A stretch of DNA of 64,000 nt from Candidatus Moraniibacteriota bacterium (GCA_016699795.1 CP065011.1:755449-819448), one strand, 5' to 3'; counted from the first letter of the stretch, positions 17,676 to 63,716 are shown. Notes: a model not told the origin generated them from the letters alone. Numbers and translations: made by a program.

Positions 17676-18541
17676 ATGAATCCACTGAAAAAAACTTCAC
17701 TTTTCTGGGATGTAAATTGCCAAGAATTGGATGAAAATATCCATGGTGAATTTATTGTGTCTCGTATACTTTCCTTTGGAAATGAAGAAGATGTTTCTTG
17801 GATGATGAAAACATATACAAAAAAACAGCTCGAAGAAATTTTTCAAAAATACGAAAAAGTTCTCGATGAAAAATCGAGAAATTATTGGTTTATTTTCTTT
17901 ACAGTACATGGCTTATGTATCCCGAAACTATCAATCACCAAACAAAGTGCGTTTTCGAAAAGATAAAAGATATTCCTCTTTTGGAACGTTTTTATCTTGC
18001 TGGAGGAACAGCACTTGCTATAGAAATCGGACATCGTATTTCTGTGGATTTAGACTTTTTTTCATTACAGAGATTTGAGAGAGAAAAATTAAAAAAATAT
18101 CTTTCTCAAAAAGGATCTATGACTCTCGTTTCTGAAGATGAAGGAACACTTCATTGTATTCTAGATGGAGTGAAACTAAGTTTTTTGGAGTATCCTTACA
18201 AAATGCTTTTTGAATTCGTGGAATTTTCTGGGATAAAACTTGCAGATGAAAGAGATATTGCTTCGATGAAAATAGACGCTGTTTCTTCTCGAGGAAGTAA
18301 AAAAGATTTTATCGATATATATTTTCTCCTCAAAAAATATAAACTTTCCGAAATAATAGGATGCTTTGAGGAGAAATTTAGTGATATACAGTACAATACC
18401 ATCCATATATACAAAAGCTTAGTTTTTTTCGAAAATGCAGACCTTGAGCCTATGCCAGTTATGATCGTTCCCCTTGATTGGGAAGGGGTGAAAAAATATA
18501 TTACTCACGAAGTAATGAATATGCAGGAGAAGAGTCTTTAA
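17676..18541 (+). pseudogene. AbiEii/AbiGii-type nucleotidyltransferase (type IV TA toxin family) with an N-terminal extension; frame change near 17880-17900
   Basis: C-terminal part (frame of 17885-18541) has the family signature FYLAGGTALAIEIGHRISVDLDFF. The N-terminal 96-aa ORF (17676-17966, LFWDVNCQELDENIHGEFIVSRILSFGNEEDVSWMMKTY) ends inside a T-rich run (tggtttattttctttac). The downstream frame is open from 17870 with no ATG, so a single gene with one indel is the most economical reading. Confidence 0.55.
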
Positions 18542-18853: not shown

Positions 18854-20026
18854 TTGTCCATTATGCTGTACTATAGTCTATATAAAGTATTAAGCCAAAA
18901 GAGTATGTACAGAAGGCAAATAGAGCGTATCAAAAAGGATCTTGAGAAAAAAATGGTTTTTATCGTGGGTCCTCGCCAGGTTGGAAAAACATGGCTTTCC
19001 AAAGAAATCGGCAAGAGCTTTGAACATGCAGTTTATCTCAATTATGATCGATCACAAGATCGTCAAATTATACAAAAAGAAATTTGGCCTCAGAAAACCG
19101 AACTCTTGATTTTTGATGAACTTCACAAAATGAAAGGATGGAAGACCTATCTTAAAGGTGTTTTTGATACAAAACCCGAACATTTAAAAATTTTAGTCAC
19201 AGGAAGTGCTCGGCTCAATACATTTCGTAAGGCTGGTGATTCGTTGGTTGGTCGGTTTTTTGTACATCAACTTCTTCCTTTTTCTCTTTCAGAGCTTAAA
19301 TATGCAAAAGTTTTCTTTGATATAGATCGATTTATTGTGCGGGGTGGTTTTCCAGAACCGTTTTTGGCCGAAAGTGATCAAGATGCTGATCGATGGAGGA
19401 ATCAATATGCTGATGGTTTGATAAGACAAGATATTTTAGATTTTGAAACCGTTCACAATTTTCGAGCTATACAAATGGTATTGGATTTACTTCGAGAAAA
19501 AGTCGGTTCACCTGTTTCATATCGTTCGATTGCTGAAGATGTGCAAATTTCTCCCACGACGGTTAAAAGATACATTGAAATTTTTGAGAGCCTCTCTATT
19601 GTTTTTAGAATTACCCCCTATTCAAAAAATATCGCACGCTCGATTTTGAAAGAACCAAAAATATATTTCTTTGATACGGGTATGGTTTCTGGAGATGATG
19701 GGGCAATGTTTGAAAATTTTGTAGCATTGAGTTTGTTTAAACATGTTTTGGGAAAAAGTGATGAAACGGGAAAGACATTTGATCTTCGATATCTCCGAAC
19801 CAAAGAAGGAAAAGAAGTTGACTTTGCTGTGACTGAAAATGGTAAAATTATTGAGATTGTTGAAGCGAAGTTAAAAGATGATGAATTAAATACTACATTG
19901 AAATACTTTTTCAAAAAATACGCACTTAAATCAGTCCAAGTGGTCAAAGAAATCAAAAGAGAAAAAACGATTGAGAATATAGAGATAGTATCGGCACGAA
20001 ACTATCTAAAAGACCTTTATTTATAA
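18854..20026 (+). CDS. AAA-family ATPase (AAA_14 plus DUF4143-type)
   Basis: Walker A VGPRQVGKTWL and Walker B LLIFDELH. Size ~390 aa and C-terminal region match the widespread AAA+DUF4143 ATPases. Stop lies 14 bp before the giant gene ORF. Confidence 0.8.
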   Translation: MSIMLYYSLYKVLSQKSMYRRQIERIKKDLEKKMVFIVGPRQVGKTWLSKEIGKSFEHAVYLNYDRSQDRQIIQKEIWPQKTELLIFDELHKMKGWKTYLKGVFDTKPEHLKILVTGSARLNTFRKAGDSLVGRFFVHQLLPFSLSELKYAKVFFDIDRFIVRGGFPEPFLAESDQDADRWRNQYADGLIRQDILDFETVHNFRAIQMVLDLLREKVGSPVSYRSIAEDVQISPTTVKRYIEIFESLSIVFRITPYSKNIARSILKEPKIYFFDTGMVSGDDGAMFENFVALSLFKHVLGKSDETGKTFDLRYLRTKEGKEVDFAVTENGKIIEIVEAKLKDDELNTTLKYFFKKYALKSVQVVKEIKREKTIENIEIVSARNYLKDLYL

Positions 20027-20040
20027 AAATAAATTCCTTC

Positions 20041-23000
20041 TTGTTCCAAAGGTGTTTCTGTGGTACTTTTAAGAGTGTTCTTCTCGATACTTCAAAAAGA
20101 AAAAAGATGCATGAAGCAACCATAAAAAGACAATCATTTTTTTCTTTTTCTCTCTCCCTCTTACTCGGATGTCTTGGAGCCTTTTTTTCTTTTTCTTCTC
20201 CTACTCATGCTTCCACTGTAACCTGGACAGGAACAACAAGCACTGCTTGGACTACAGTAACGAACTGGAATACAGGAACTGTTCCTACAAGCACAGATGA
20301 TGTTGTTATAAATTACACAGGAACGAATCAACCTACACTCGATGTAAATGGTGGAACCATTACTATACAATCTCTTACTCTTGGAGGAGGAGCATCAACT
20401 TCTACTCTTACTATGAGTAATGGGTATAGACTCGATGATATCAATAGAAAACTTCTTGTTACGGGAAATGTTACGATTCTTGATAAAGGATATCTTACGC
20501 ATACAGCAAACGGATCAGCGGAAACGCATAGACTTCTCATGAGTGTCGGAGGGAATCTCGATGTTCAAACTGGAGGACAGATTAATGTAGATGGGAAGGG
20601 GTATGCGGATGGATCAACTCCAAGCGGATCAAGAACGAGTGGTGTTGCAGGTGGAACTTATGGGGGAGTCGGGAGTAGTAGTGTTGTTGCAACATATGGT
20701 TCCATTAATCATCCTGTTAATATTGGAGGTGCTGGTTATTATAATAATGGAGGGATCGGTGGGGGATCGGTGGTTATATTCACAATTGGGAATATAATTA
20801 TAAATGGAAAAGTGACATCAAAAGGAATAACTGCTGGAGGTGCTGGTGGCTCAGTAAATATCTTAGGAGATTTCTTTTCTGGTTCCGGATCTGTTGAAGT
20901 AAATGGCTCATCTCTTGCTGGATATAATGGTGGTGGCGGTCGCATTGCCGTAAAACTCACCTCCGGAAATGATTTTGGATTCGTCACGATGCAAGCGTAT
21001 GGAGCCCCCGGAGCTGGCGCTGGAACCGTCTACACCGAGACTGCAAGTCAAGGATCCGGAAATGGAACGGTGATTATTGATAATAATAATGTTTCTTCTT
21101 CTGTATTTACCGCTATTCCTTCTACCCAAACTTGGACTATTAAAAATCTAATTGTAAAAAACAAAGGAAAAATCAGCGTTCCTACCGGGACCACTCTCAT
21201 ACTTGATAATCCCGATTCTGTAACCGGACTTTCTGGAGTCTCCGCAATAGAAAGTGGTATCGCTCTTCGAGGAGGAATTTTTGATCTTCCTCAGGGGTCT
21301 CTTACTATTGAAAACTGGGCGCTTATTGCAGATCTTCCTCATACGCTCAATGGAGATATTACGGTAAAATCCGGAGGGTATATGACGCATAGCGCTAACA
21401 CGAATACGGAAGCATACAAAATGAACCTTACAATTAATGGTAATCTCGATGTTCAAACCGGAGGACAGATTAATGTAGATAGGAAAGGGTATGGAACAGG
21501 ATATGGACCAGGATATTGTGGTGAAAGGGGTGCTTATGGAGGACAAAGTGAAAATGTAAGCTGTCTAACATACGGATCTATAATGAATCCTATAAATTTA
21601 GGATCTGATAGTGGAGGAGGTGCTGTTATTTTGAATATTTTTGGAGTAACTACCTTAAATGGTACTATTTCATCTAGTAGTTTTGATGCTTATAGAGGGT
21701 CTGGAGGAGGTGTAAATATTATCACTCATATTCTTAATGGATCAGGTTCAATTAAGACAACTGCAATGTCTCGTTCTGGTGGTGGACGAATTGCGGTAAA
21801 ACTTACTTCCGGAAATGACTTCGGATCCGTTGTTATGCAAGCGTATGGTGCAGCTGCCGGCACCATCTACACCGAAACCGCAAGTCAGGGCACGGGAAAC
21901 GGAGCAGTAACGATTGATAATAACAATCAAACTTCTTCCGTTTTCACTGCTATCCCCTCCACTCAAACATGGACCATTAAAAATCTAGTCGTAAAAAATA
22001 GAGGAAAAATCAGCGTTCCTACCGGGACCACTCTCATACTTGATAATCCCGATTCTGTAACCGGACTTTCTGGAGTCTCCGCAATAGAAAGTGGTATCGC
22101 TCTTCGAGGAGGAATTTTTGATCTTCCTCAGGGGTCTCTTACTATTGAAAACTGGGCGCTTATTGCAGATCTTCCTCATACGCTCAATGGAGATATTACG
22201 GTAAAATCCGGAGGGTATATGACGCATAGCGCTAACACGAATACGGAAGCATACAAAATGAACCTTACAATTAATGGTAATCTCGATGTTCAAATTGGAG
22301 GAAAGATTAATGTGGATGGGAGGGGATATGGGGCGGGGTATGGACCGGGAATTTGTAAATACAATAATACTTTTACTGCTTCATATGGAGGAAATAATAT
22401 AGTGGATTGTGGCGGATTTGTTTACGGATCTCTTTATAATCCAGTTAATTTAGGAACTGGAGGGAATAATAATTCAGGGGGGGGGATCTATTGTTTTGAA
22501 TGTTGCTGAATCAGTAATTATTTCTGGCTCAGTAACAGCAAATTCTGGATCTTCAAGTAATACAGGCACAGGAGGATCTATTAATATAATTACTGGAAGC
22601 ATAAGTGGTTCAGGATCTTTAAAGGCAAATATGATTTCTAATGCTGGCGGAAGCAGTGGTGGTCGCATCGCCGTTAAACTTACTTCAGGAAATGATTTTG
22701 GGTCGATTGTAATGCAGGTATTTGGAGGACCCTCAGGATGTGGAGCTTTTCCTTGTGGAACCGCAGCAGCCGGCACTATCTACACTGAAACTGCCTCTCA
22801 AGGCCCCAACAATGGCACCCTCACCATAGACAATAACAATCAAACAGCTACCGTCCAAACCCTCATCCCCCAAGACAACTTCACCAACAACTCCCTCTCC
22901 CTTGGAAACATCATTGTAAAAAACAAAGGACTTCTTGCCATTCCTACAGGAACCACTCTTAACACTACAGGAGACATAACCATAGGAACTCTTAACTCTT

Positions 23001-26000
23001 CTACTGACACCTCACACATAGTAGCCAATGGAACAGGAACTCTCATTTCTACCAATCTCACTATTCATGGAGTAAGTGGTACAGGAGCATCCATAAACAC
23101 CAACACGAAAGGTTACACTCCTACTCTTGGAACAGGAGCAGGAACAACAGGCTCTCTTGGATATGGATCAGGAGGAACATATGGAGGAAGAGGAGGAAAT
23201 AGTAGTGATGGAGCAACTTCCCCTAACACCTATGGAAATGACTTTGTTCCCGAAGATCTTGGAAGTGGAGGAGGAAAGTCTACAGGAGGAACAGGAGGAG
23301 GAGATATACGAATCAGAACGAATAACAATCTCAACCTCTATGGAACCATATCCAGTAACGGTAGCGCTGGACTCACCAATGGTGGAGGAGGATCAGGAGG
23401 ATCTATAAACATACTCTATGCAAAAAACTTCACCATAAACGGTGGAAAGCTTCAAGCCAATGGTGGGGCGGGACAAGGTGGTGGAGGAGGAGGGGGAGGA
23501 GGAAGAATCGCCTATGCCTATGAAAACAAAACATTTACCAATCAAACGATTCAAACACTCGGAGGAACAAAAGGAGCTACCGCACCTGCAACTGATGGAA
23601 GCGCAGGTTCACTTAAATCTGGATACCTTGCTGGTTCTCTTATCTCTTCAGCATTTGATTCCAGTAGTGATGCTAATGTCATGGGAACAATAGAATGGAA
23701 AGAAAATGAAATACTCCCAACAGGTTCTTCAGTAACTCTTTCTCTCAAAACTGCAGGAACGAAAGGAAATCTTTCTTCTTCCCCCTGGATACAAATAGCA
23801 CAATCTACTCCCTCTTCTCTTACTACACATTGTACAAAAAACAATACAACGGTAAGTTGCACAGCCAGTGCTATCCCTCAAGATATGAAAGATATCTTTG
23901 AAGATCGCTTCTTTCAATACAAAGTAGATCTTTCTTCTCCTGACCTTCTTTCTCAACCTCAAGTCGATGATGTAAAAGTAGGCTATGTTGTGAATGCTTT
24001 CCCTATGATTCAAAATGTAACCACTACTCCCAATACTGATAAAACAGTAACTATCACGTACGAAACAAAAGATGAAGATACCAATACCGGAACCAATACT
24101 CCAGGAATAGTTACTCCGAGCTTTGAATACTACAATGGAAGTAGTTGGATCAATATCGCTTCCAATACTCTAGCTCCCGAAGATATACAAAACAAAACAG
24201 TGAATCAAGATACGTACACAACACACAGTGCTACCTGGACTCCTTCTCTCGTAAGTGAATCTTTCTATCTTACCAATGCAAAAATCCGTGTAACCGTAAG
24301 TGACAATGAAGGAGCGAATAATATCGCACGAGCTGAATCAAATACCTTTACCCTCGATACAAAAACTCCCACCAATCCCTCCCTCCTTGTTGATGCTTCC
24401 ACTCAAGACCTCACCATTCCCTCCACCACATCTGTTCTTACTCTTGGAGTCAGTGATGACTCTCCAACACAGATGAAGATTTCTCTTGACGAAAACCTTA
24501 CCAACTCTCCTTGGGAACCTTTTAATGCAACGGTAACAATAAAACTCGAAACTGATCCCGACATTGTCTATACTCGCTTCAAAGATCAATACGGGAATGA
24601 AACACAAACCATACACACAACTACTCCAGAAACTCCTACACGAGTCATTTCTCAAGATACGAGTAATATGCTTCTTACCCCTCCAGAATACCGAGCCTTC
24701 GTAGGATTCAAAACAATAGAAGAACCTCCAACAGGATTCGGAAACTACAAACTCTATAGAAGTGATGACGCTACTACCTATACGCTTCAAAATATCATAA
24801 CCTCAAGAACAACAAACTTCCTTACTGATGCTACCCCACAACCAGACATTCTCTACACCTACAAAGCAAAGACAACAGACACACCAGGAAATGTTTCTTT
24901 CTTCTCACAAACCGTTACGATGAAAGCAAATGGTATTCAAGACTTCGGAGAAGGTGGAGGAGGATCAGATCAAACCCCTCCTGTTCTACAAAACGTAACC
25001 GTAGAATCTAAAGACACCACAACCGTAACTATCACATGGGAAACAGATGAACTCTCTGACTCTCGTGTAGAATATGCAACCACTCCCAACACCTATACCA
25101 AACAAACAGGAGTCTCTACCTATGCTGACACCCAAGCACAATCAGGACTTCATAGAGTCACTCTTACCAACCTCACACCAAACACTCCCTACTTCTTTAG
25201 AGTTGCCTCTACTGATCCTCAAGGCAATACCGGAGTCAATGACAATAATGGCAATGGATATGAAGTCACAACGAATCCTGGACCTTCTATCAGTGGTGTA
25301 GCGGTATCAAGTGCTTCTAACACACAAGCAACCATATTCTGGAATACGAATGTCCCTGCAGACTCTGTACTCCATTACAGTGAAAACAAGAATGGATCTC
25401 TTATCGATCCTATCACTCTCTCCGGATCAAGTGTTCTTACAAAAAATCATCAAGTAACCTTAGATGCTCTTACTCAAGGAACCACCTACTATTTCTACGT
25501 TACCTCCACCGACTCACAAGGAAACATTGCCAATGACAATAATGGAGGAAACTATTTTCAATTCTCTACAACACTCGACGAAACACCTCCTACCATAACG
25601 AATCTTCAAACATCTCTTATCTCAAATGACAAAGCAGTTATTACAGCAAACACAGATGAAGAAGCATCCTTCCTCCTTCAGTACAGAAAAAAAGGAAGCC
25701 TTACCTTCACACAAACAGAACAAGGAACAACATACGATAGATCTCACTACAGGGTACTCGATACTCTTACTCCTGATACAGAGTATGAATATCAAGTGAG
25801 TGTTAAAGATATCAATCAAAACGAATCACAGAGTGATATACAAACAATGAAAACAACCTTAGATCCAGAATACAATCATGCACCTCTTTCAAAGATTCAT
25901 ACTATCAGTGATCCTCCTAAAGTACTCACTGATCAAAAAGCAGTCATAACCTTCCAGACGGATCAAGCAGCAAACTGCATCCTTGAATATGGAACCCAAT

Positions 26001-27415
26001 CAAGAAACTACCAAGAAGTTCCTCAAACAGAAGCGACAGGAATCTATGACACACTCCATTCCCTGCATCTTGGAGGACTCATCTTTAACACAACCTACTT
26101 CTACAAACTTCTTTGTGAAGATAATCTTGGAACCCTCATAGAGAGTGAAGAAAAAAGCTTCACAACAAAACTCAAACAAGTAGACAGTGGAAGTGAACAA
26201 GCAGAATCTACTCCTCCCTCTATCTCAGGAGTCAAAGTCAAAGACATTACAGGAGAGAGTGCAGTGGTGAGTTGGGAGACGGATGAAGTTTCTGATAGTA
26301 GAGTAAAATATGGTACGACAAAAGACCTTGAATATGCCACAATTGATAGTATTACAGGTTTCGACCCCACCAAATACACCACCTCCCACTCCGTAACTCT
26401 TCGAGGTCTCATCCCATCTACTAAATACTTCTTCTCCACAGGATCTTCCGACACCGCCGGAAACATAGGCACCTCCTCCCAACAAACCTTCCAAACGCAA
26501 TCTCCTTCTTCCATCTCTTCCATTAAAGCTTCTTCCAAACAAATAGGGGAAACAACTATCACATGGAAAACTTCCACTCCCACTACCTCTATTGTTGAAT
26601 ATGGAAACACAGAAAACTATGGACAAACAAGAAAAAGTGAAGAACTCAAAAAAGATCATGAAATTATCATAAACAATCTTTTAGAAAACTCTACCTACCA
26701 CTTCCGAGTAAAAGGAGAAGATGAATCAAAAAATCTCTTCTCTTCTTCCGACTCTACCTTTGAACCAAAGTCTCCACCACAAATCAAAGAAATCAAGATA
26801 GAAGTTCTTTCAGACAGAGAAGCAAAAGTAAACTTCCTTACTGATACTCTTACCGACTCTCTTGTAACCTACAAAAACAAAAACAAAGAAGAAGATCAAA
26901 AGAGTGAAGGAAATCCCTCCCTCCTCCAAACTCACTCCCTCACCCTCAAAGAACTCACTCCTGGAGAAAACTACGTTCTTACTGTACGAGTCAGAGATGA
27001 TATGGGAAATGAAACTCTCTCTGATGAGATAGAATTCACTATGCAAAAAGATGAAACTTCTCCTACAGTAGAAAGAGTCTCTACCGACTCCGCTCTTTCA
27101 CAAAACGGAAAAGTACAAATGATTATTAACTGGCAAACAGATGAAGATGCTTCTTCCTCCCTCATCTACAAAGAAGGAAGAGCAGGAGAAGAAAAAACAG
27201 TGAATGTAAGTTCTTCCCCAACAAAGAATCACATCATTGTACTCACCTCTTGGAAACCAGGAACTCTCTACTCTTACAAAGTCATAGTAAAAGATCTGAG
27301 TGGGAATGAAACCATAACCAAAGACTACATCACCCTTACACCACAAACAAAAGAATCTGTTGTAGAACTCATCATAAAGAACTTCAAAGAAATCTTTGCT
27401 TGGACGGGAGGGTAG
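20041..27415 (+). CDS. Giant secreted surface protein, copy 1 (beta-helix-like Gly-rich module array plus ~10 FN3-like domains); interrupted by a 1-nt frameshift at a G9 tract
   Basis: ORFs 20041-22509 and 22496-27415 join into one ~2457-aa protein if one G is removed from the tract at 22477-22485 (gives ...NNNSGGGSIVLNVAESVIISGSV, matching sibling modules such as GGGAVILNIFGVTTLNG). Signal peptide follows the Met at 20107 (FFSFSLSLLLGCLGAFFSFSSPTHA). Contains ~280-aa tandem modules (GNLDVQTGGQINVD...GRIAVKLTSGNDFG...AGTIYTETASQG...TIDNNN) and repeated W-x-T-D...Y-G/Y-F-R-V FN3-like domains. Confidence 0.85.
21167..21478 (+). repeat. Intragenic ~312-bp near-perfect direct repeat (partner 22005-22316)
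   Basis: Encodes the identical ~104-aa stretch KISVPTGTTLILDNPDSVTGL...NLTINGNLDVQ in two successive modules of giant gene 1. The DNA is essentially identical. Confidence 0.8.
22477..22485 (+). repeat. G9 homopolymer at the frameshift site of giant gene 1
   Basis: Nine consecutive G at 22477-22485. Reading frame switches exactly here; G8 would give a continuous ORF. Confidence 0.85.
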
Positions 27416-55891: not shown

Positions 55892-56494
55892 ATGGGAAAA
55901 AATGAAAATGCTCAAGAAAAAGACGAATTAAATAATAGTAGCGATAAAGATCTTGTTTTGCAAATCCGAAAAGGAAATGAAAAATATTTTAATGATCTCC
56001 TTGGTCGTTACCGAGAAAAATTGTTTTTTTACCTTAGGCATTTTGTGGGGGGGAAAGAAGAGGCGGAAGATCTTTTGCAAAATGTTTTTGTAAAAGCATA
56101 TGAAAAATTTTCAAGTTTTGATCAAGAAAGGCAATTCTCTTCTTGGATTTATAGAATTGCTCACAATGAAGCAGTAAATTATCTTAAGAGAAGAAGTCAA
56201 AAAATATTTCTTTCTTGGGAAGATATTGTAACTGCCAAAGATCGATTAGAATCTTCGAGTAAGGAACGATCAGCTCAAGAAGAATGGATTCGCAAAGAAG
56301 TTCGTGATGATGTTCGGCTTGCTCTAGAAAGATTGAATGAAAAGTATAGAGAAATATTGATACTGCGATTTTATTTGGATCATTCGTATGAAGAGATAGC
56401 AAAGATTATTGATAGACCAACAAATACCGTAGGAACACTCATTAGTCGAGCAAAAAAAAGACTTCTTCGAGAGATGAATACTTTAGTAAAATAA
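55892..56494 (+). CDS. ECF sigma factor, paralog of the 7664-8305 gene
   Basis: Region 2 DLLQNVFVKAYEKFSSFD...FSSWIYRIAHNEA. Region 4 SYEEIAKIIDRPTNTVGTLISRAKKRLLREM. Confidence 0.85.
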   Translation: MGKNENAQEKDELNNSSDKDLVLQIRKGNEKYFNDLLGRYREKLFFYLRHFVGGKEEAEDLLQNVFVKAYEKFSSFDQERQFSSWIYRIAHNEAVNYLKRRSQKIFLSWEDIVTAKDRLESSSKERSAQEEWIRKEVRDDVRLALERLNEKYREILILRFYLDHSYEEIAKIIDRPTNTVGTLISRAKKRLLREMNTLVK

Positions 56495-56813: not shown

Positions 56814-59800
56814 GTGAAGAATGACTTTAAAAAAGAATTTTTCTTTCACTTTTCCCTTCCTTTTCTTTTTGGAATTCTTTGTGTTTTCTTTTTTTCTTTT
56901 TCTTCTCCTACTCATGCTTCCACTGTAACCTGGACAGGAACAACAAGCACTGCTTGGACTACAGTAACGAACTGGAATACAGGAACTGTTCCTACAAGCA
57001 CAGATGATGTTGTTATAAATTACACAGGAACGAATCAACCTACACTCGATGTAAATGGTGGAACCATTACTATACAATCTCTTACTCTTGGAGGAGGAGC
57101 ATCAACTTCTACTCTTACTATGAGTAATGGGTACAACGGAAATGATACAAACAAAAAATTGAATGTTACAGGAAATGTTACGATTCTCAACAATGGTTAC
57201 CTTACCCACACCGCAAACACTACTACAGAAACCCATAGACTCTTTATGGATATCGGAGGGAATCTCGATGTTCAGACAGGAGGGCAGATTAATGTGGATG
57301 TTAAAGGATATAGTAGTGGACCAGGAAATGGGGGCTGTTCAAGTCAAGGCGCTTCTTATGGTGGACAAGGTGGCTGTGGTTCTACTTTTATCGATACTTA
57401 TGGGTCAATCTCTGATCCCGTAAATATAGGAAGCGGAGGCGCTGGCAATGGGACGCTTGGCGGGGGTTCTACTGTTCTTGAAGTTGTCGGAGAAACAACG
57501 ATTAATGGGATTGTTGCTTCTAGTAGTATTTCATCTGCAAATCGGTGTGGCTCAGGAGGAACTATCTCTTTAAAAACAGGTTCACTTAACGGCTCTGGTC
57601 TTATTCGTGCGGATGGAGTAGTAGCTTCATATGGGACTTCGCAGGGAATTGGGGGGGGTGGTCGTATTGCTATAAAGCTCACGTCTAGTAATAATTTTGG
57701 ATCTGTTATGATGCGGGCATATGGTTATGGTGGTGCAGCAGCCGGTACCATCTACACTGAAACGGCAAGTCAAAGAGAGGGGAATGGAACGGTAATTATT
57801 GATAATAACAATCAAAATTCTTCCGTTTTTACCGCTATTCCCGCAACACAAACATGGACGATTAAAAATCTTGTCCTAAAAAACAAAGGACAAATCAGTG
57901 TACCAACAGGAACGACGTTGGATATTAGTAATGTAACAATTACCACAACAGACGCCACTCCCATAAGTGGAATAATGGTAAATGGTGGAACTTTTATCCC
58001 TCCATTAAATACCCATTCTTTTTCTCTTCCTCTTTTTTACAATTTTTACGCTCCCTATACCATCACTGGAGATCTTACTCTCGGTGGAGGATCAGCTCAG
58101 ACACAACTTATTATTACCAACGGATCCCCAACAAACAAATTCACTGTTACCGGAAATGTTACGATTCTCAATAATGGTTATCTTACTCATACCAGTGACT
58201 ATTCTTCCGAGACCCATCGTCTTTTTATGGACATAGGAGGAAACCTTGACATTCAAACCGGAGGACAAATTAATGCTGATGATAAGGGATATGGTAGTGG
58301 TCCGGGTTATGGAGGAACAAATCCATATTGTGGATCTTATGGTGGTCAAGCCCTTCCTTTGGGCGTTACTTATGGGTCTATTACTTCACCAGTTAACTAT
58401 GGCAGTGGTGGGGGAACAAATGTGTATGGTGGTGGGTCTATTCAATTAACAGTTTCAAGAAATACAAATATAGCAGGAATTGTTAGTTCAAGCTCAACTG
58501 TTTATAACGGATCTCGATCGGGGTCAGGCGGATCTGTTAATATTATTACAGAAACTCTTTCTGGTTCGGGAAGTATAATTACCAAAGGGGCTCAATCTCC
58601 TTGTGGTGCAGGTGGACGTATTGCTGTCAAACTTACCTCTGGAAACGATTTCGGATTAGTAACAATGCAATCATTTGGAGTGGGTGGAGCTGCCGGAACC
58701 ATCTACACTGAAACTGTCTCTCAAGGCCCCAACAATGGCACCCTCACCATAGACAACAACAACATTTCCACTTCAGCCCAAACCCTCATCCCCCAAGACA
58801 ACTTCACCAACAACTCCCTCTCTCTCGGAAACATCATTGTAAAAAACAAAGGACTTCTTGCCATTCCTACAGGAACCACTCTTAACACTACAGGAGACAT
58901 AACCATAGGAACTCTTAACTCTTCTACTGACACCTCACACATAGTAGCCAATGGAACAGGAACTCTCATTTCTACCAATCTCACTATTCATGGAGTAAGT
59001 GGTACAGGAGCATCCATAAACACCAACACGAAAGGTTACACTCCTACTCTTGGAACAGGAGCAGGAACAACAGGCTCTCTTGGATATGGATCAGGAGGAA
59101 CATATGGAGGAAGAGGAGGAAATAGTAGTGATGGAGCAACTTCCCCTAACACCTATGGAAATGACTTTGTTCCCGAAGATCTTGGAAGTGGAGGAGGAAA
59201 GTCTACAGGAGGAACAGGAGGAGGAGATATACGAATCAGAACGAATAACAATCTCAACCTCTATGGAACCATATCCAGTAACGGTAGCGCTGGACTCACC
59301 AATGGTGGAGGAGGATCAGGAGGATCTATAAACATACTCTATGCAAAAAACTTCACCATAAACGGTGGAAAGCTTCAAGCCAATGGTGGGGCGGGACAAG
59401 GTGGTGGAGGAGGAGGGGGAGGAGGAAGAATCGCCTATGCCTATGAAAACAAAACATTTACCAATCAAACGATTCAAACACTCGGAGGAACAAAAGGAGC
59501 TACCGCACCTGCAACTGATGGAAGCGCAGGTTCACTTAAATCTGGATACCTTGCTGGTTCTCTTATCTCTTCAGCATTTGATTCCAGTAGTGATGCTAAT
59601 GTCATGGGAACAATAGAATGGAAAGAAAATGAAATACTCCCAGCAAATACAACCGTAACCATCTCTCTCAAAACTGCAGGAACGAAAGAAAATCTTTCTT
59701 CTTCCCCCTGGACACAACTTGCACAGTCCACTGCTTCTTCTCTTACCTCAGGATGTACAAAGAATGGAATCAATGTTATCTGCTCTCTTTCTTCTATCCC

Positions 59801-62800
59801 TAATACTCTACGAGATACTATAGGAGATCGCTTCTTTCAATACAAAGTAGATCTTTCTTCTCCTGACCTTCTTTCTCAACCTCAAGTCGATGATGTAAGT
59901 GTTTCCTATGTTGTAAACGCTCCTCCTGAAATAGAATCAGTAAGTGCTTCTCAATCTACTCCCAATGATACCATTACCTTTACCTACAGTATTCAAGATA
60001 TCGATACACAAACAGGAACCTATACTCCCAACTACATCACTCCTACCTTTGAATATTCTCTTGATGATGGATCAAGCTGGCATACCATCTCTTCTTCATT
60101 CTTTACCTACAACAGCGCACCCTTTGGAGGAGATATTTCTGATCAAAACGCTGATACTATCATGGAGAATAAAGTTACCGATACCTACAAAACCTATTCC
60201 ATTAATTGGAACGCTCAACAACAACTCGGTCTTAATACACAAACAAACAATGTACGCATACGACTCACCATTACAGACAATGAAGCAGCAAACAATAACA
60301 AATTCCTTGTAAGTGATCCTTTTGGTATAGACACAAGACCTCTTACCTCCATTACCGTTTCTCAATCATACCAAGAAGCTACACTCGGACAGGTTCTCAT
60401 TTCCTATGACTATGAGATTCAACCTACTATCCAAAACAATACAACACTCACTCTTGAATACTTCAATGGAAGTACATGGATAGAAGCAGTAAGTGTAACA
60501 GGGGATATCGGACTCAATGTATCTACAGGAAACAAAAGTCTGGTATGGATTCCAAAAACAGATATCCCTGAACATTTCTCTTCTACCTCCAGAGTTCGAC
60601 TCATCGCTTCGTATCAAGTTGCTTCATACACCATGACTTCAGTAAACTACACCCTCGATACAAAAACTCCCACCAATCCCTCCCTCCTTGTTGATGCTTC
60701 CACTCAAGACCTCACCATTCCCTCCACCACATCTGTTCTTACTCTTGGAGTCAGTGATGACTCTCCAACACAGATGAAGATTTCTCTTGACGAAAACCTT
60801 ACCAACTCTCCTTGGGAACCTTTTAATGCAACGGTAACAATAAAACTCGAAACTGATCCCGACATTGTCTATACTCGCTTCAAAGATCAATACGGGAATG
60901 AAACACAAACCATACACACAACTACTCCAGAAACTCCTACACGAGTCATTTCTCAAGATACGAGTAATATGCTTCTTACCCCTCCAGAATACCGAGCCTT
61001 CGTAGGATTCAAAACAATAGAAGAACCTCCAACAGGATTCGGAAACTACAAACTCTATAGAAGTGATGACGCTACTACCTATACGCTTCAAAATATCATA
61101 ACCTCAAGAACAACAAACTTCCTTACTGATGCTACCCCACAACCAGACATTCTCTACACCTACAAAGCAAAGACAACAGACACACCAGGAAATGTTTCTT
61201 TCTTCTCACAAACCGTTACGATGAAAGCAAATGGTATTCAAGACTTCGGAGAAGGTGGAGGAGGATCAGATCAAACCCCTCCTGTTCTACAAAACGTAAC
61301 CGTAGAATCTAAAGACACCACAACCGTAACTATCACATGGGAAACAGATGAACTCTCTGACTCTCGTGTAGAATATGCAACCACTCCCAACACCTATACC
61401 AAACAAACAGGAGTCTCTACCTATGCTGACACCCAAGCACAATCAGGACTTCATAGAGTCACTCTTACCAACCTCACACCAAACACTCCCTACTTCTTTA
61501 GAGTTGCCTCTACTGATCCTCAAGGCAATACCGGAGTCAATGACAATAATGGCAATGGATATGAAGTCACAACGAATCCTGGACCTTCTATCAGTGGTGT
61601 AGCGGTATCAAGTGCTTCTAACACACAAGCAACCATATTCTGGAATACGAATGTCCCTGCAGACTCTGTACTCCATTACAGTGAAAACAAGAATGGATCT
61701 CTTATCGATCCTATCACTCTCTCCGGATCAAGTGTTCTTACAAAAAATCATCAAGTAACCTTAGATGCTCTTACTCAAGGAACCACCTACTATTTCTACG
61801 TTACCTCCACCGACTCACAAGGAAACATTGCCAATGACAATAATGGAGGAAACTATTTTCAATTCTCTACAACACTCGACGAAACACCTCCTACCATAAC
61901 GAATCTTCAAACATCTCTTATCTCAAATGACAAAGCAGTTATTACAGCAAACACAGATGAAGAAGCATCCTTCCTCCTTCAGTACAGAAAAAAAGGAAGC
62001 CTTACCTTCACACAAACAGAACAAGGAACAACATACGATAGATCTCACTACAGGGTACTCGATACTCTTACTCCTGATACAGAGTATGAATATCAAGTGA
62101 GTGTTAAAGATATCAATCAAAACGAATCACAGAGTGATATACAAACAATGAAAACAACCTTAGATCCAGAATACAATCATGCACCTCTTTCAAAGATTCA
62201 TACTATCAGTGATCCTCCTAAAGTACTCACTGATCAAAAAGCAGTCATAACCTTCCAGACGGATCAAGCAGCAAACTGCATCCTTGAATATGGAACCCAA
62301 TCAAGAAACTACCAAGAAGTTCCTCAAACAGAAGCGACAGGAATCTATGACACACTCCATTCCCTGCATCTTGGAGGACTCATCTTTAACACAACCTACT
62401 TCTACAAACTTCTTTGTGAAGATAATCTTGGAACCCTCATAGAGAGTGAAGAAAAAAGCTTCACAACAAAACTCAAACAAGTAGACAGTGGAAGTGAACA
62501 AGCAGAATCTACTCCTCCCTCTATCTCAGGAGTCAAAGTCAAAGACATTACAGGAGAGAGTGCAGTGGTGAGTTGGGAGACGGATGAAGTTTCAAACTCA
62601 CAGGTGAGATATGGGACGACGAAGGAGACTCTTCAATTTGGTGGTGACAGTCTTGTCAACTTCGACCCCACCAAATACACCACCTCCCACTCCGTAACTC
62701 TGCGAGGTCTCATCCCATCTACTAAATACTTCTTCTCCACAGGATCTTCCGACACCGCCGGAAACATAGGCACCTCCTCCCAACAAACCTTCCAAACGCA

Positions 62801-63716
62801 ATCTCCTTCTTCCATCTCTTCCATTAAAGCTTCTTCCAAACAAATAGGGGAAACAACTATCACATGGAAAACTTCCACTCCCACTACCTCTATTGTTGAA
62901 TATGGAAACACAGAAAACTATGGACAAACAAGAAAAAGTGAAGAACTCAAAAAAGATCATGAAATTATCATAAACAATCTTTTAGAAAACTCTACCTACC
63001 ACTTCCGAGTAAAAGGAGAAGATGAATCAAAAAATCTCTTCTCTTCTTCCGACTCTACCTTTGAACCAAAGTCTCCACCACAAATCAAAGAAATCAAGAT
63101 AGAAGTTCTTTCAGACAGAGAAGCAAAAGTAAACTTCCTTACTGATACTCTTACCGACTCTCTTGTAACCTACAAAAACAAAAACAAAGAAGAAGATCAA
63201 AAGAGTGAAGGAAATCCCTCCCTCCTCCAAACTCACTCCCTCACCCTCAAAGAACTCACTCCTGGAGAAAACTACGTTCTTACTGTACGAGTCAGAGATG
63301 ATATGGGAAATGAAACTCTCTCTGATGAGATAGAATTCACTATGCAAAAAGATGAAACTTCTCCTACAGTAGAAAGAGTCTCTACCGACTCCGCTCTTTC
63401 ACAAAACGGAAAAGTACAAATGATTATTAACTGGCAAACAGATGAAGATGCTTCTTCCTCCCTCATCTACAAAGAAGGAAGAGCAGGAGAAGAAAAAACA
63501 GTGAATGTAAGTTCTTCCCCAACAAAGAATCACATCATTGTACTCACCTCTTGGAAACCAGGAACTCTCTACTCTTACAAAGTCATAGTAAAAGATCTGA
63601 GTGGGAATGAAACCATAACCAAAGACTACATCACCCTTACACCACAAACAAAAGAATCTGTTGTAGAACTCATCATAAAGAACTTCAAAGAAATCTTTGC
63701 TTGGACGGGAGGGTAG
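56814..63716 (+). CDS. Giant secreted surface protein, copy 2 (intact 2300-aa ORF; beta-helix-like Gly-rich modules plus FN3-like domain array)
   Basis: Signal peptide FFFHFSLPFLFGILCVFFFSFSSPTHA. N-terminal 78 aa after the signal are identical to copy 1. Modules with GNLD(V/I)QTGGQIN, GRIA(V/I)KLTS.N.FG and AGTIYTETASQ. C-terminal ~1020 aa identical to copy 1. Confidence 0.9.
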   Translation: MKNDFKKEFFFHFSLPFLFGILCVFFFSFSSPTHASTVTWTGTTSTAWTTVTNWNTGTVPTSTDDVVINYTGTNQPTLDVNGGTITIQSLTLGGGASTSTLTMSNGYNGNDTNKKLNVTGNVTILNNGYLTHTANTTTETHRLFMDIGGNLDVQTGGQINVDVKGYSSGPGNGGCSSQGASYGGQGGCGSTFIDTYGSISDPVNIGSGGAGNGTLGGGSTVLEVVGETTINGIVASSSISSANRCGSGGTISLKTGSLNGSGLIRADGVVASYGTSQGIGGGGRIAIKLTSSNNFGSVMMRAYGYGGAAAGTIYTETASQREGNGTVIIDNNNQNSSVFTAIPATQTWTIKNLVLKNKGQISVPTGTTLDISNVTITTTDATPISGIMVNGGTFIPPLNTHSFSLPLFYNFYAPYTITGDLTLGGGSAQTQLIITNGSPTNKFTVTGNVTILNNGYLTHTSDYSSETHRLFMDIGGNLDIQTGGQINADDKGYGSGPGYGGTNPYCGSYGGQALPLGVTYGSITSPVNYGSGGGTNVYGGGSIQLTVSRNTNIAGIVSSSSTVYNGSRSGSGGSVNIITETLSGSGSIITKGAQSPCGAGGRIAVKLTSGNDFGLVTMQSFGVGGAAGTIYTETVSQGPNNGTLTIDNNNISTSAQTLIPQDNFTNNSLSLGNIIVKNKGLLAIPTGTTLNTTGDITIGTLNSSTDTSHIVANGTGTLISTNLTIHGVSGTGASINTNTKGYTPTLGTGAGTTGSLGYGSGGTYGGRGGNSSDGATSPNTYGNDFVPEDLGSGGGKSTGGTGGGDIRIRTNNNLNLYGTISSNGSAGLTNGGGGSGGSINILYAKNFTINGGKLQANGGAGQGGGGGGGGGRIAYAYENKTFTNQTIQTLGGTKGATAPATDGSAGSLKSGYLAGSLISSAFDSSSDANVMGTIEWKENEILPANTTVTISLKTAGTKENLSSSPWTQLAQSTASSLTSGCTKNGINVICSLSSIPNTLRDTIGDRFFQYKVDLSSPDLLSQPQVDDVSVSYVVNAPPEIESVSASQSTPNDTITFTYSIQDIDTQTGTYTPNYITPTFEYSLDDGSSWHTISSSFFTYNSAPFGGDISDQNADTIMENKVTDTYKTYSINWNAQQQLGLNTQTNNVRIRLTITDNEAANNNKFLVSDPFGIDTRPLTSITVSQSYQEATLGQVLISYDYEIQPTIQNNTTLTLEYFNGSTWIEAVSVTGDIGLNVSTGNKSLVWIPKTDIPEHFSSTSRVRLIASYQVASYTMTSVNYTLDTKTPTNPSLLVDASTQDLTIPSTTSVLTLGVSDDSPTQMKISLDENLTNSPWEPFNATVTIKLETDPDIVYTRFKDQYGNETQTIHTTTPETPTRVISQDTSNMLLTPPEYRAFVGFKTIEEPPTGFGNYKLYRSDDATTYTLQNIITSRTTNFLTDATPQPDILYTYKAKTTDTPGNVSFFSQTVTMKANGIQDFGEGGGGSDQTPPVLQNVTVESKDTTTVTITWETDELSDSRVEYATTPNTYTKQTGVSTYADTQAQSGLHRVTLTNLTPNTPYFFRVASTDPQGNTGVNDNNGNGYEVTTNPGPSISGVAVSSASNTQATIFWNTNVPADSVLHYSENKNGSLIDPITLSGSSVLTKNHQVTLDALTQGTTYYFYVTSTDSQGNIANDNNGGNYFQFSTTLDETPPTITNLQTSLISNDKAVITANTDEEASFLLQYRKKGSLTFTQTEQGTTYDRSHYRVLDTLTPDTEYEYQVSVKDINQNESQSDIQTMKTTLDPEYNHAPLSKIHTISDPPKVLTDQKAVITFQTDQAANCILEYGTQSRNYQEVPQTEATGIYDTLHSLHLGGLIFNTTYFYKLLCEDNLGTLIESEEKSFTTKLKQVDSGSEQAESTPPSISGVKVKDITGESAVVSWETDEVSNSQVRYGTTKETLQFGGDSLVNFDPTKYTTSHSVTLRGLIPSTKYFFSTGSSDTAGNIGTSSQQTFQTQSPSSISSIKASSKQIGETTITWKTSTPTTSIVEYGNTENYGQTRKSEELKKDHEIIINNLLENSTYHFRVKGEDESKNLFSSSDSTFEPKSPPQIKEIKIEVLSDREAKVNFLTDTLTDSLVTYKNKNKEEDQKSEGNPSLLQTHSLTLKELTPGENYVLTVRVRDDMGNETLSDEIEFTMQKDETSPTVERVSTDSALSQNGKVQMIINWQTDEDASSSLIYKEGRAGEEKTVNVSSSPTKNHIIVLTSWKPGTLYSYKVIVKDLSGNETITKDYITLTPQTKESVVELIIKNFKEIFAWTGG

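Follow-up and report, generated by a model that had tools for sequence, protein, structure and literature searches.

A nine-guanine tract at the frame break of a giant gene in a Moraniibacteriota bacterium: a candidate slippage switch

A Giant Gene Split at a Homopolymer

The 64,000-nucleotide stretch of DNA analysed here (the window; positions are counted from its first letter) belongs to Candidatus Moraniibacteriota bacterium (GCA_016699795.1, CP065011.1:755449-819448), an uncultured member of the candidate phyla radiation (CPR, or Patescibacteria). It carries two giant paralogous genes, copy 1 and copy 2. Copy 2 is intact, and copy 1 is divided into two open reading frames (ORFs), ORF A and ORF B (Table 1), which part at a run of nine G residues (G9). 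The question raised by this locus is whether the tract is a switch that varies in length, an error of the assembled consensus, the site of a real and non-functional frameshift, or a break that is bypassed or made irrelevant at the level of expression. The reading that we prefer, tentatively, is that of a slippage-prone coding tract that may act as an ON/OFF frameshift switch, seen here in its OFF state. An earlier note on this DNA had set a phase switch beside a homopolymer error. This is the correct pair of alternatives, and sequence alone separates neither from the other.

The Tract Determines the Reading Frame

The nine Gs stand exactly at 22477-22485 in the context ...AATAATAATTCA GGGGGGGGG ATCTATTG... 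The codons on the 5' side of the tract read GGA GGG AAT AAT AAT TCA, followed by GGGGGGGGG and then by ATC TAT TGT. ORF A is open from 20041, has its likely start at ATG 20107 behind an A-rich leader, and continues through the tract into a shifted frame in which it ends with ...SGGGIYCFECC at the TGA of 22507-22509, 8 codons past the tract. ORF B opens in the -1 frame, 11 nt past the tract, at 22496. The frame therefore changes within the nine-G run, as the earlier note had claimed.

The effect of tract length on the frame was simulated. Eight Gs give an open frame of 2,457 codons from 20041, corresponding to 2,435 aa from ATG 20107, and eleven Gs give one uninterrupted frame of 2,458 codons, also from 20041; with seven, nine or ten Gs a stop is reached 4-8 codons past the tract. 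Among these simulated lengths a change of ±1 toggles between the full-length and a truncated product. The in-frame form of the tract, with eight Gs, reads TCA GGG GGG GGA TCT. Its translation ...NNNSGGGSIVLNVAESVIISGSVTA... (…NNNSGGGSIVLNVAESVIISGSVTANSGSSSNTGTGGSINIITGSISGSGSLK across the junction) fits the motif GGG[SA]hhLxh of the sibling modules, other instances of which are GGGAVILNI in copy 1 and GGGSTVLEV and GGGSIQLTV in copy 2. The match to sibling modules that had been proposed for the G8 reading was thus found, and so was the lack of a homopolymer at the equivalent motif of copy 2, where the codons are GGC GGG GGT and GGT GGT GGG.

The tract is singular in the window. In an indel test of the 808 homopolymers of at least 5 nt, it alone is a site at which gaining or losing 1 nt would unite long open stretches on both sides (2.5 kb each) within a gene; the other sites flagged by the test are true gene boundaries (DUF4395/Big_13 protein, Lnb_N/MgsA, PrsW/ValRS). 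None of the 807 other homopolymers breaks a gene in the 64 kb, including 22 A/T octamers, a G7 and a G8, so that residual homopolymer error is rare in the window. The exact coincidence of G9 with the frame break is no chance event.

According to the switch reading, slipped-strand mispairing at replication would gain or lose one G and so toggle translation of the distal two thirds of the gene. A tract of G8 or G11 would direct synthesis of the full-length 2,435-aa protein with its signal peptide, four Gly-rich beta modules and FN3 array; G7, G9 or G10 would lead to the 800-aa product that ends within module 3, and the assembly would show one of these OFF lengths. Gene conversion would have placed the cassette that bears the tract in two of at least five paralogs, and the organism could vary which giant surface proteins it displays. 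The real length of the tract may be the one assembled and may vary within the population, and the protein may be located at the cell surface.

Table 1. Features of the window discussed in the text, in window coordinates.
Feature	Position	Strand	Description
ORF A (QQS60963.1 / IPN70_03675), 800 aa	20107..22509	+	signal-peptide-like N-terminus, two complete Gly-rich beta modules, half of the third
G9 homopolymer	22477..22485	+	Gly-Gly-Gly turn of module 3; site of the frame break
ORF B (QQS60964.1), 1,639 aa	22496..27415	+	rest of module 3, fourth module with poly-Gly run, FN3 / Pur_ac_phosph_N-type array
Copy 1, giant paralog as one gene, 2,435 aa	20107..27415	+	results with G8 or G11
Module-3 cassette (NLDVQIGGKINVDGRGYGAGYGPGICKYNNTF...TETASQGP)	22279..22807	+	carries the tract; common only to the second split locus (P0003 and P0123)
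Copy 2 (QQS60985.1), 2,300 aa, intact paralog	56814..63716	+	
In-frame G8 in copy 2	57651..57658	+	ATT GGG GGG GGT GGT, IGGGG of the GGGGRIAIK motif

A Family of Giant Paralogs and a Second Split Locus

The source genome codes for at least five giant paralogs (2,140-2,468 aa), which occupy ~3% of its 1.19-Mb coding capacity. Their signal peptides and first 70 residues are near-identical, and the module variants that follow are shuffled among them. Outside the window lie P0002 (QQS61592.1, 2,140 aa), P0124 (QQS61620.1, 2,468 aa, intact) and a second split pair formed by P0003 (QQS61821.1, 816 aa) and P0123 (QQS61822.1, 1,639 aa). The module variant and the frameshifted tail at the end of P0003 are those of ORF A (...NNNSGGGIYCFECC and a stop). 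P0123 starts at MNVAESV like ORF B, from which it differs by 23 residues, all within positions 1267-1318. The same tract is thus the break point in two of the five giant genes. The two split loci are identical over ~77 residues before and 1,266 residues after it, amounting to ~4 kb of protein-identical sequence. Locus-specific sequence is found upstream of 22279 (...YKMNLTINGNLDVQ in copy 1; ...HRLFMDVGGNLDVQ at the second locus), some 230 nt ahead of the tract.

The mosaic structure of the family extends over the distal part of the genes. From residue 923 to its end copy 1 is 100% protein-identical to intact P0002. With copy 2 it shares DNA-identical blocks of 1.9 kb and 1 kb, the last 3 kb of the two genes being identical save for a 70-nt patch and one single-nucleotide polymorphism. 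The hypervariable patch (26293-26359 in copy 1, 62594-62660 in copy 2) has 38 differences and is found in at least three versions among the paralogs, the third of which is that of P0123 residues 1267-1318. It looks like a micro-cassette lying inside one FN3 domain and exchanged through segmental gene conversion.

Controls for the tract-bearing cassette were sought elsewhere. P0124 was rejected as an in-frame control because its third module is a different variant, and P0043 and P0036 (~800 aa) were rejected as parallel truncations because each begins at the end of its contig and belongs to a distant organism. A DNA pattern search with the exact flanks and a variable gap found no copy in the genome or metagenome contig collections, peptide-seeded locus searches of the same collections found no further copy of the tract locus, and exact-protein contig look-ups with ORF A, P0003, RpoB and ZnuA found no other assembly of the organism on record.

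Copy 2 carries a G8 of its own, which is in frame (Table 1); at the equivalent motif copy 1 has mixed GGT/GGC/GGA codons. This G8 is a second slippage-prone tract, as prone as that of copy 1, and it provides an internal control in that the assembly called a G8 in frame. The proposal that only copy 1 would be switchable finds no support in view of this tract and of the second locus (QQS61821.1 and QQS61822.1) split at the same tract as copy 1. Directly upstream of copy 2, at 55892-56494, lies a gene coding for a sigma-70 factor of the extracytoplasmic function (ECF) type (TIGR02937, 6e-30). It contains in frame the third-longest G run of the window, a G7 at 56047-56053.

Architecture of the Giant Protein

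The N-terminus of copy 1 (…KRQSFFSFSLSLLLGCLGAFFSFSSPTHA followed by STVTW…) is signal-peptide-like, as judged by eye, and is followed by repeated modules of ~290-390 residues. ORF B has no signal peptide of its own. Sequence searches of Pfam, NCBIfam and PDB gave no match to the module. Its family is very large and mostly unannotated: a homolog search found 418 proteins at E<=1e-10, which often carry 3-5 modules each, some of the distant relatives having G8 or Gly_rich_2 Pfam hits or being labelled 'autotransporter-associated beta strand'. This search was word-seeded and left out copy 2, ORF B, P0123 and P0124, though they are present in the collection and have long stretches identical to the query; these were found by exact look-up, and failure to appear in the homolog list does not show that a protein is absent.

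The first module of copy 2 was modelled with AlphaFold2 on a 20-sequence alignment. The model is confident and all-beta, with a predicted local distance difference test score (pLDDT) of 87.6 and a predicted template modelling score (pTM) of 0.90. A Foldseek search of PDB with this model found no significant match (best E 0.099 with a TM of ~0.15; TM 0.14-0.24 among the hits). The weak neighbours are all beta-helix proteins, namely Ag43, TibA, IcsA, Ssp, pectate lyases and tailspikes. In the model, the Gly-Gly-Gly that matches the tract (residues 181-183) is the turn directly before the longest strand (184-195, pLDDT ~97), and therefore the OFF product would end mid-module. The Pfam families that score above the gathering threshold in ORF B are PF16656 (5.6e-52, 7 stretches) and PF00041 (1.6e-22), both of which are found in copy 2. 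Surface location of the giant protein would be in keeping with its predicted features, namely the N-terminus, the FN3 arrays and the beta-rich modules.

Several other features of copy 1 and its surroundings were recorded. An internal tandem repeat (20931-21519 versus 21777-22356) is 88% identical in DNA and 91% identical in protein; its ratio of nonsynonymous to synonymous substitution rates (dN/dS) is 0.12, and the inter-module linker is therefore under purifying selection and not recently duplicated. The FN3 halves of both giant genes (24001-26000 and 60001-62000) have a GC skew of about -0.30, versus +0.1 to +0.25 elsewhere, and an AT skew of up to +0.2. The flip presumably reflects the base composition of Thr/Ser/Asn/Gln-rich coding sequence and has nothing to do with replication. 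Scans for promoters and terminators gave counts equal to the shuffled expectation. Directly upstream of copy 1 are an overlapping DUF6922/AbiEii toxin-antitoxin-like pair and an AAA_14/DUF4143 ATPase gene (17676-18541, 18854-20026); a gene of the latter type also adjoins a distant family member on an unrelated JGI contig (L001, 3171-4565).

Evidence Bearing on a Switch

The observations that argue for the switch include the position of the frame break exactly in the tract, the fit of the G8 reading to the family motif and the well-polished state of the remaining window, as described above. The class of gene fits as well, with its signal-peptide-like N-terminus, repeated all-beta modules and at least 7 FN3-type stretches. 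The 108 cassette-specific codons that follow the tract keep all module motifs (GGSINIITGS, GGRIAVKLTSGNDFGS, AGTIYTETASQG). As they occur at the two split loci alone, the intact paralogs could not serve to refresh them. To obtain G9 from an in-frame truth, either a G8 must be over-called or a G11 under-called by 2 nt. Consensus errors of Nanopore R9.4.1 data at long homopolymers are mostly 1-nt deletions. The five-member family with its kb-long identical blocks and small hypervariable patch has the layout of variable surface-protein families. G/C tracts of at least 8 nt are an established switch in low-GC Campylobacter and in Neisseria, and a tract of such length is hypermutable in the organisms where this was measured (PMC8355987, PMC5084427).

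The composition of the window places the tract in proportion. At a GC content of ~35%, G9 is the longest G/C run, and the only others of at least 7 nt are the G8 of copy 2 and the G7 of the sigma factor gene. Dinucleotide shuffles of the window contain 0.6 ± 0.9 G8 matches versus 3 observed, which overlap and come from two tracts; at least 3 are reached in 5 of 100 shuffles. The copy 1 gene contains 21 Gly-Gly-Gly windows, and of its 291 Gly codons 10% are GGG. In a gene so rich in Gly a long G run is no more than a mild surprise, and it is not in itself a sign of selection for mutability. The nine-glycine run of both giant genes (QGGGGGGGGGRIAYAY, at 23479-23505 and 59403-59429) is encoded by GGT GGA GGA GGA GGG GGA GGA GGA and holds no G run >5; here, in contrast to the G9 site, the choice of codons keeps a homopolymer from forming.

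A number of points weigh against the switch. When synonymous codons are shuffled within the gene, the share of trials with a run of at least eight Gs is 21% in copy 1, 18% in copy 2 and 3.5% in both genes. With such a run in ~20% of shuffles there is no strong sign of selection for the tract. The tract is placed 2.4 kb into the gene and not near its 5' end. It is the longest G/C homopolymer of the window and lies inside ~4 kb duplicated in the genome, and each of these makes a consensus error more likely in an assembly from long reads. The G9 of the second locus does not count as independent confirmation, which is ruled out by the ~4 kb of protein identity around the tract. Contingency loci are defined by length heterogeneity, and the tract is known here from the sequence of one assembly. 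Finally, dN/dS is 0.49-0.51 downstream of the tract versus 0.12-0.23 upstream. This last figure was set aside as a test of selection downstream of the frameshift: from residue 923 onwards the protein of copy 1 is the same as that of an intact paralog, and recent gene conversion that homogenised it with intact paralogs makes the downstream value uninformative. The description of the locus as a classic contingency locus stands as far as the tract and its frame effect are concerned; the argument for it is weaker than had been stated, given the position 2.4 kb into the gene and a run arising in about one in five shuffles.

The preference for a slippage switch is held with these points in mind. The more specific proposal, that a poly-G switch resides in a transferable cassette of two of at least five gene-converting giant paralogs and toggles adhesin-like proteins in a CPR/Patescibacteria (Moraniibacteriota) cell, is possible but doubtful.

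Alternative Explanations of the Split

A plausible alternative, which has to be taken seriously, is that the true tract is G8 (or G11), that the gene is intact at both loci and that ORF A and ORF B are separated by a homopolymer miscall in a long-read-based metagenome-assembled genome (MAG). As a MAG on a single contig of 1,186,598 bp with IPN70_ tags and QQS accessions, the source genome resembles the closed MAGs from Patescibacteria described by Singleton et al. 2021, to which it may belong. The pipeline of PMC8012365 used Nanopore R9.4.1 reads, CANU/Flye, Racon and two rounds of medaka, and one round of Racon with Illumina reads; sister Moranbacterales circular MAGs (CMAGs) of that study had coverage of only 10-20x for Illumina and 18-41x for Nanopore. 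Homopolymer indels are a known residual error of such assemblies (PMC9262707), and G9 is the longest G/C run of the window and lies within a multi-kb repeat. The downstream frame of 1,639 codons is perfectly intact. Recurrence of the split does not speak against an error, since an identical context at two loci would give an identical systematic error. The G9 calls at the two loci amount to one observation, because any assembler or polisher would treat the reads of both loci alike and gene conversion would copy the tract together with its flanks.

Against a miscall stands the state of the remaining window, in which no other homopolymer is out of frame, including the G8 of copy 2 and the 22 A8/T8 runs; that the 807 others break no gene indicates effective polishing. 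A miscall would moreover mean that one G was inserted (G8 to G9) or two were lost (G11 to G9), and that Illumina polishing left this uncorrected. Such polishing should succeed even in a repeat of two copies when these are identical.

A real but non-functional frameshift is unlikely. It would leave two of the five paralogs dead, the lesion having spread by gene conversion, and these would be kept intact-looking by overwriting or would serve as silent donor cassettes. Identity of copy 1 with P0002 from residue 923 onwards and the 1.9-kb and 1-kb DNA blocks shared with copy 2 are what such overwriting would produce, and intactness of the downstream part says nothing about selection on copy 1 because this part is identical to intact paralogs. 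The downstream dN/dS of ~0.5 and the same lesion at two loci are likewise consistent with dead copies. However, G9 is no stable lesion, as slippage would regenerate in-frame alleles, and the 108 cassette-specific codons past the tract, found only at the two split loci, nevertheless have no stop and retain every module motif.

Very improbable is a rescue at expression, in which RNA-polymerase slippage or a +1 ribosomal shift restores the frame in part, or ORF B is translated alone from TTG 22496 with the G run as a Shine-Dalgarno-like element: a G-rich stretch does lie 10 nt before an in-frame TTG (a matter of sequence geometry only) and NCBI annotates ORF B as a coding sequence (CDS) of its own from there, but a product of ORF B by itself would have no signal peptide and would start within a beta module, and no conserved stimulatory element for recoding was seen. 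Bacterial transcriptional slippage is known from A/T runs of at least 9 nt and not from G runs, which counts against recoding. An alternative genetic code as cause of the split was rejected because translation table 11 gives long, unbroken reading frames for all other genes of the window.

Comparison with Known Systems

Gene-conversion-diversified surface families include Treponema tprK, Anaplasma msp2 and the Mycoplasma variable lipoproteins. The family described here resembles them by its at least five paralogs, kb-long identical blocks, shuffled cassettes and the 70-nt patch in at least three versions. It differs in that no dedicated silent-cassette archive was identified in it and that all copies have their own signal peptides. 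Its mosaic is read here from one genome and gave no sign of recombination under way within a population.

A likeness to Ag43, autotransporter passengers and pectate-lyase-fold proteins is found in the repeated all-beta Gly-rich modules, and these proteins are only non-significant Foldseek neighbours. Unlike autotransporters, the giant protein has no significant structure or sequence match to them, no autotransporter Pfam domain or beta-barrel, and a C-terminal half made of an FN3 array. It is no autotransporter. Phase variation of Ag43 itself depends on Dam/OxyR and involves no repeat tract.

Homopolymer contingency loci that vary by slipped-strand mispairing are known from Campylobacter jejuni, Neisseria meningitidis and Haemophilus (PMC8355987, PMC5084427), and the literature search also found classical ones in Bordetella and M. 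tuberculosis. The locus in copy 1 shares with them a G tract of at least 8 nt inside an ORF of a low-GC genome, a stop a few codons on after a change of ±1, a putative surface-protein gene and annotation as two adjacent CDSs. It departs from them by its tract lying 2.4 kb into a 7.3-kb gene, theirs being near the start, by the non-pathogenic, uncultured CPR/Patescibacteria host, and by a tract that is not clearly over-represented relative to codon-usage expectation. Homopolymer artefacts of Nanopore R9.4.1 assemblies (PMC9262707; PMC8012365) also have much in common with it: a single-base discrepancy at the longest homopolymer, a split gene call, a position in a repeat and a source that is probably a long-read MAG. 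Unlike in poorly polished assemblies, the window does not have many broken genes, and the error needed is an over-call and not a deletion.

Biological Significance

If the split is an error, a public 'complete' genome wrongly presents two genes of ~2,400 aa as four CDSs (QQS60963/60964 and QQS61821/61822). The underlying G8 (or G11) tract would still be slippage-prone, and the same applies to the G8 of copy 2. Slippage at a homopolymer is a textbook mechanism and would, if confirmed here, be new only for the phylum. A full-text literature search found no paper naming both 'phase-variable' and 'Candidate Phyla Radiation', and with a true switch, simple-sequence-repeat phase variation would be on record for the first time in the CPR. 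If the tract length is real and variable, ultra-small host-dependent CPR bacteria would share the contingency-locus strategy of mucosal pathogens, and the five-member giant family would be a candidate variable interface with hosts or phages. The switch, together with cassette shuffling, would then vary the surface at which the bacterium meets its hosts and phages.

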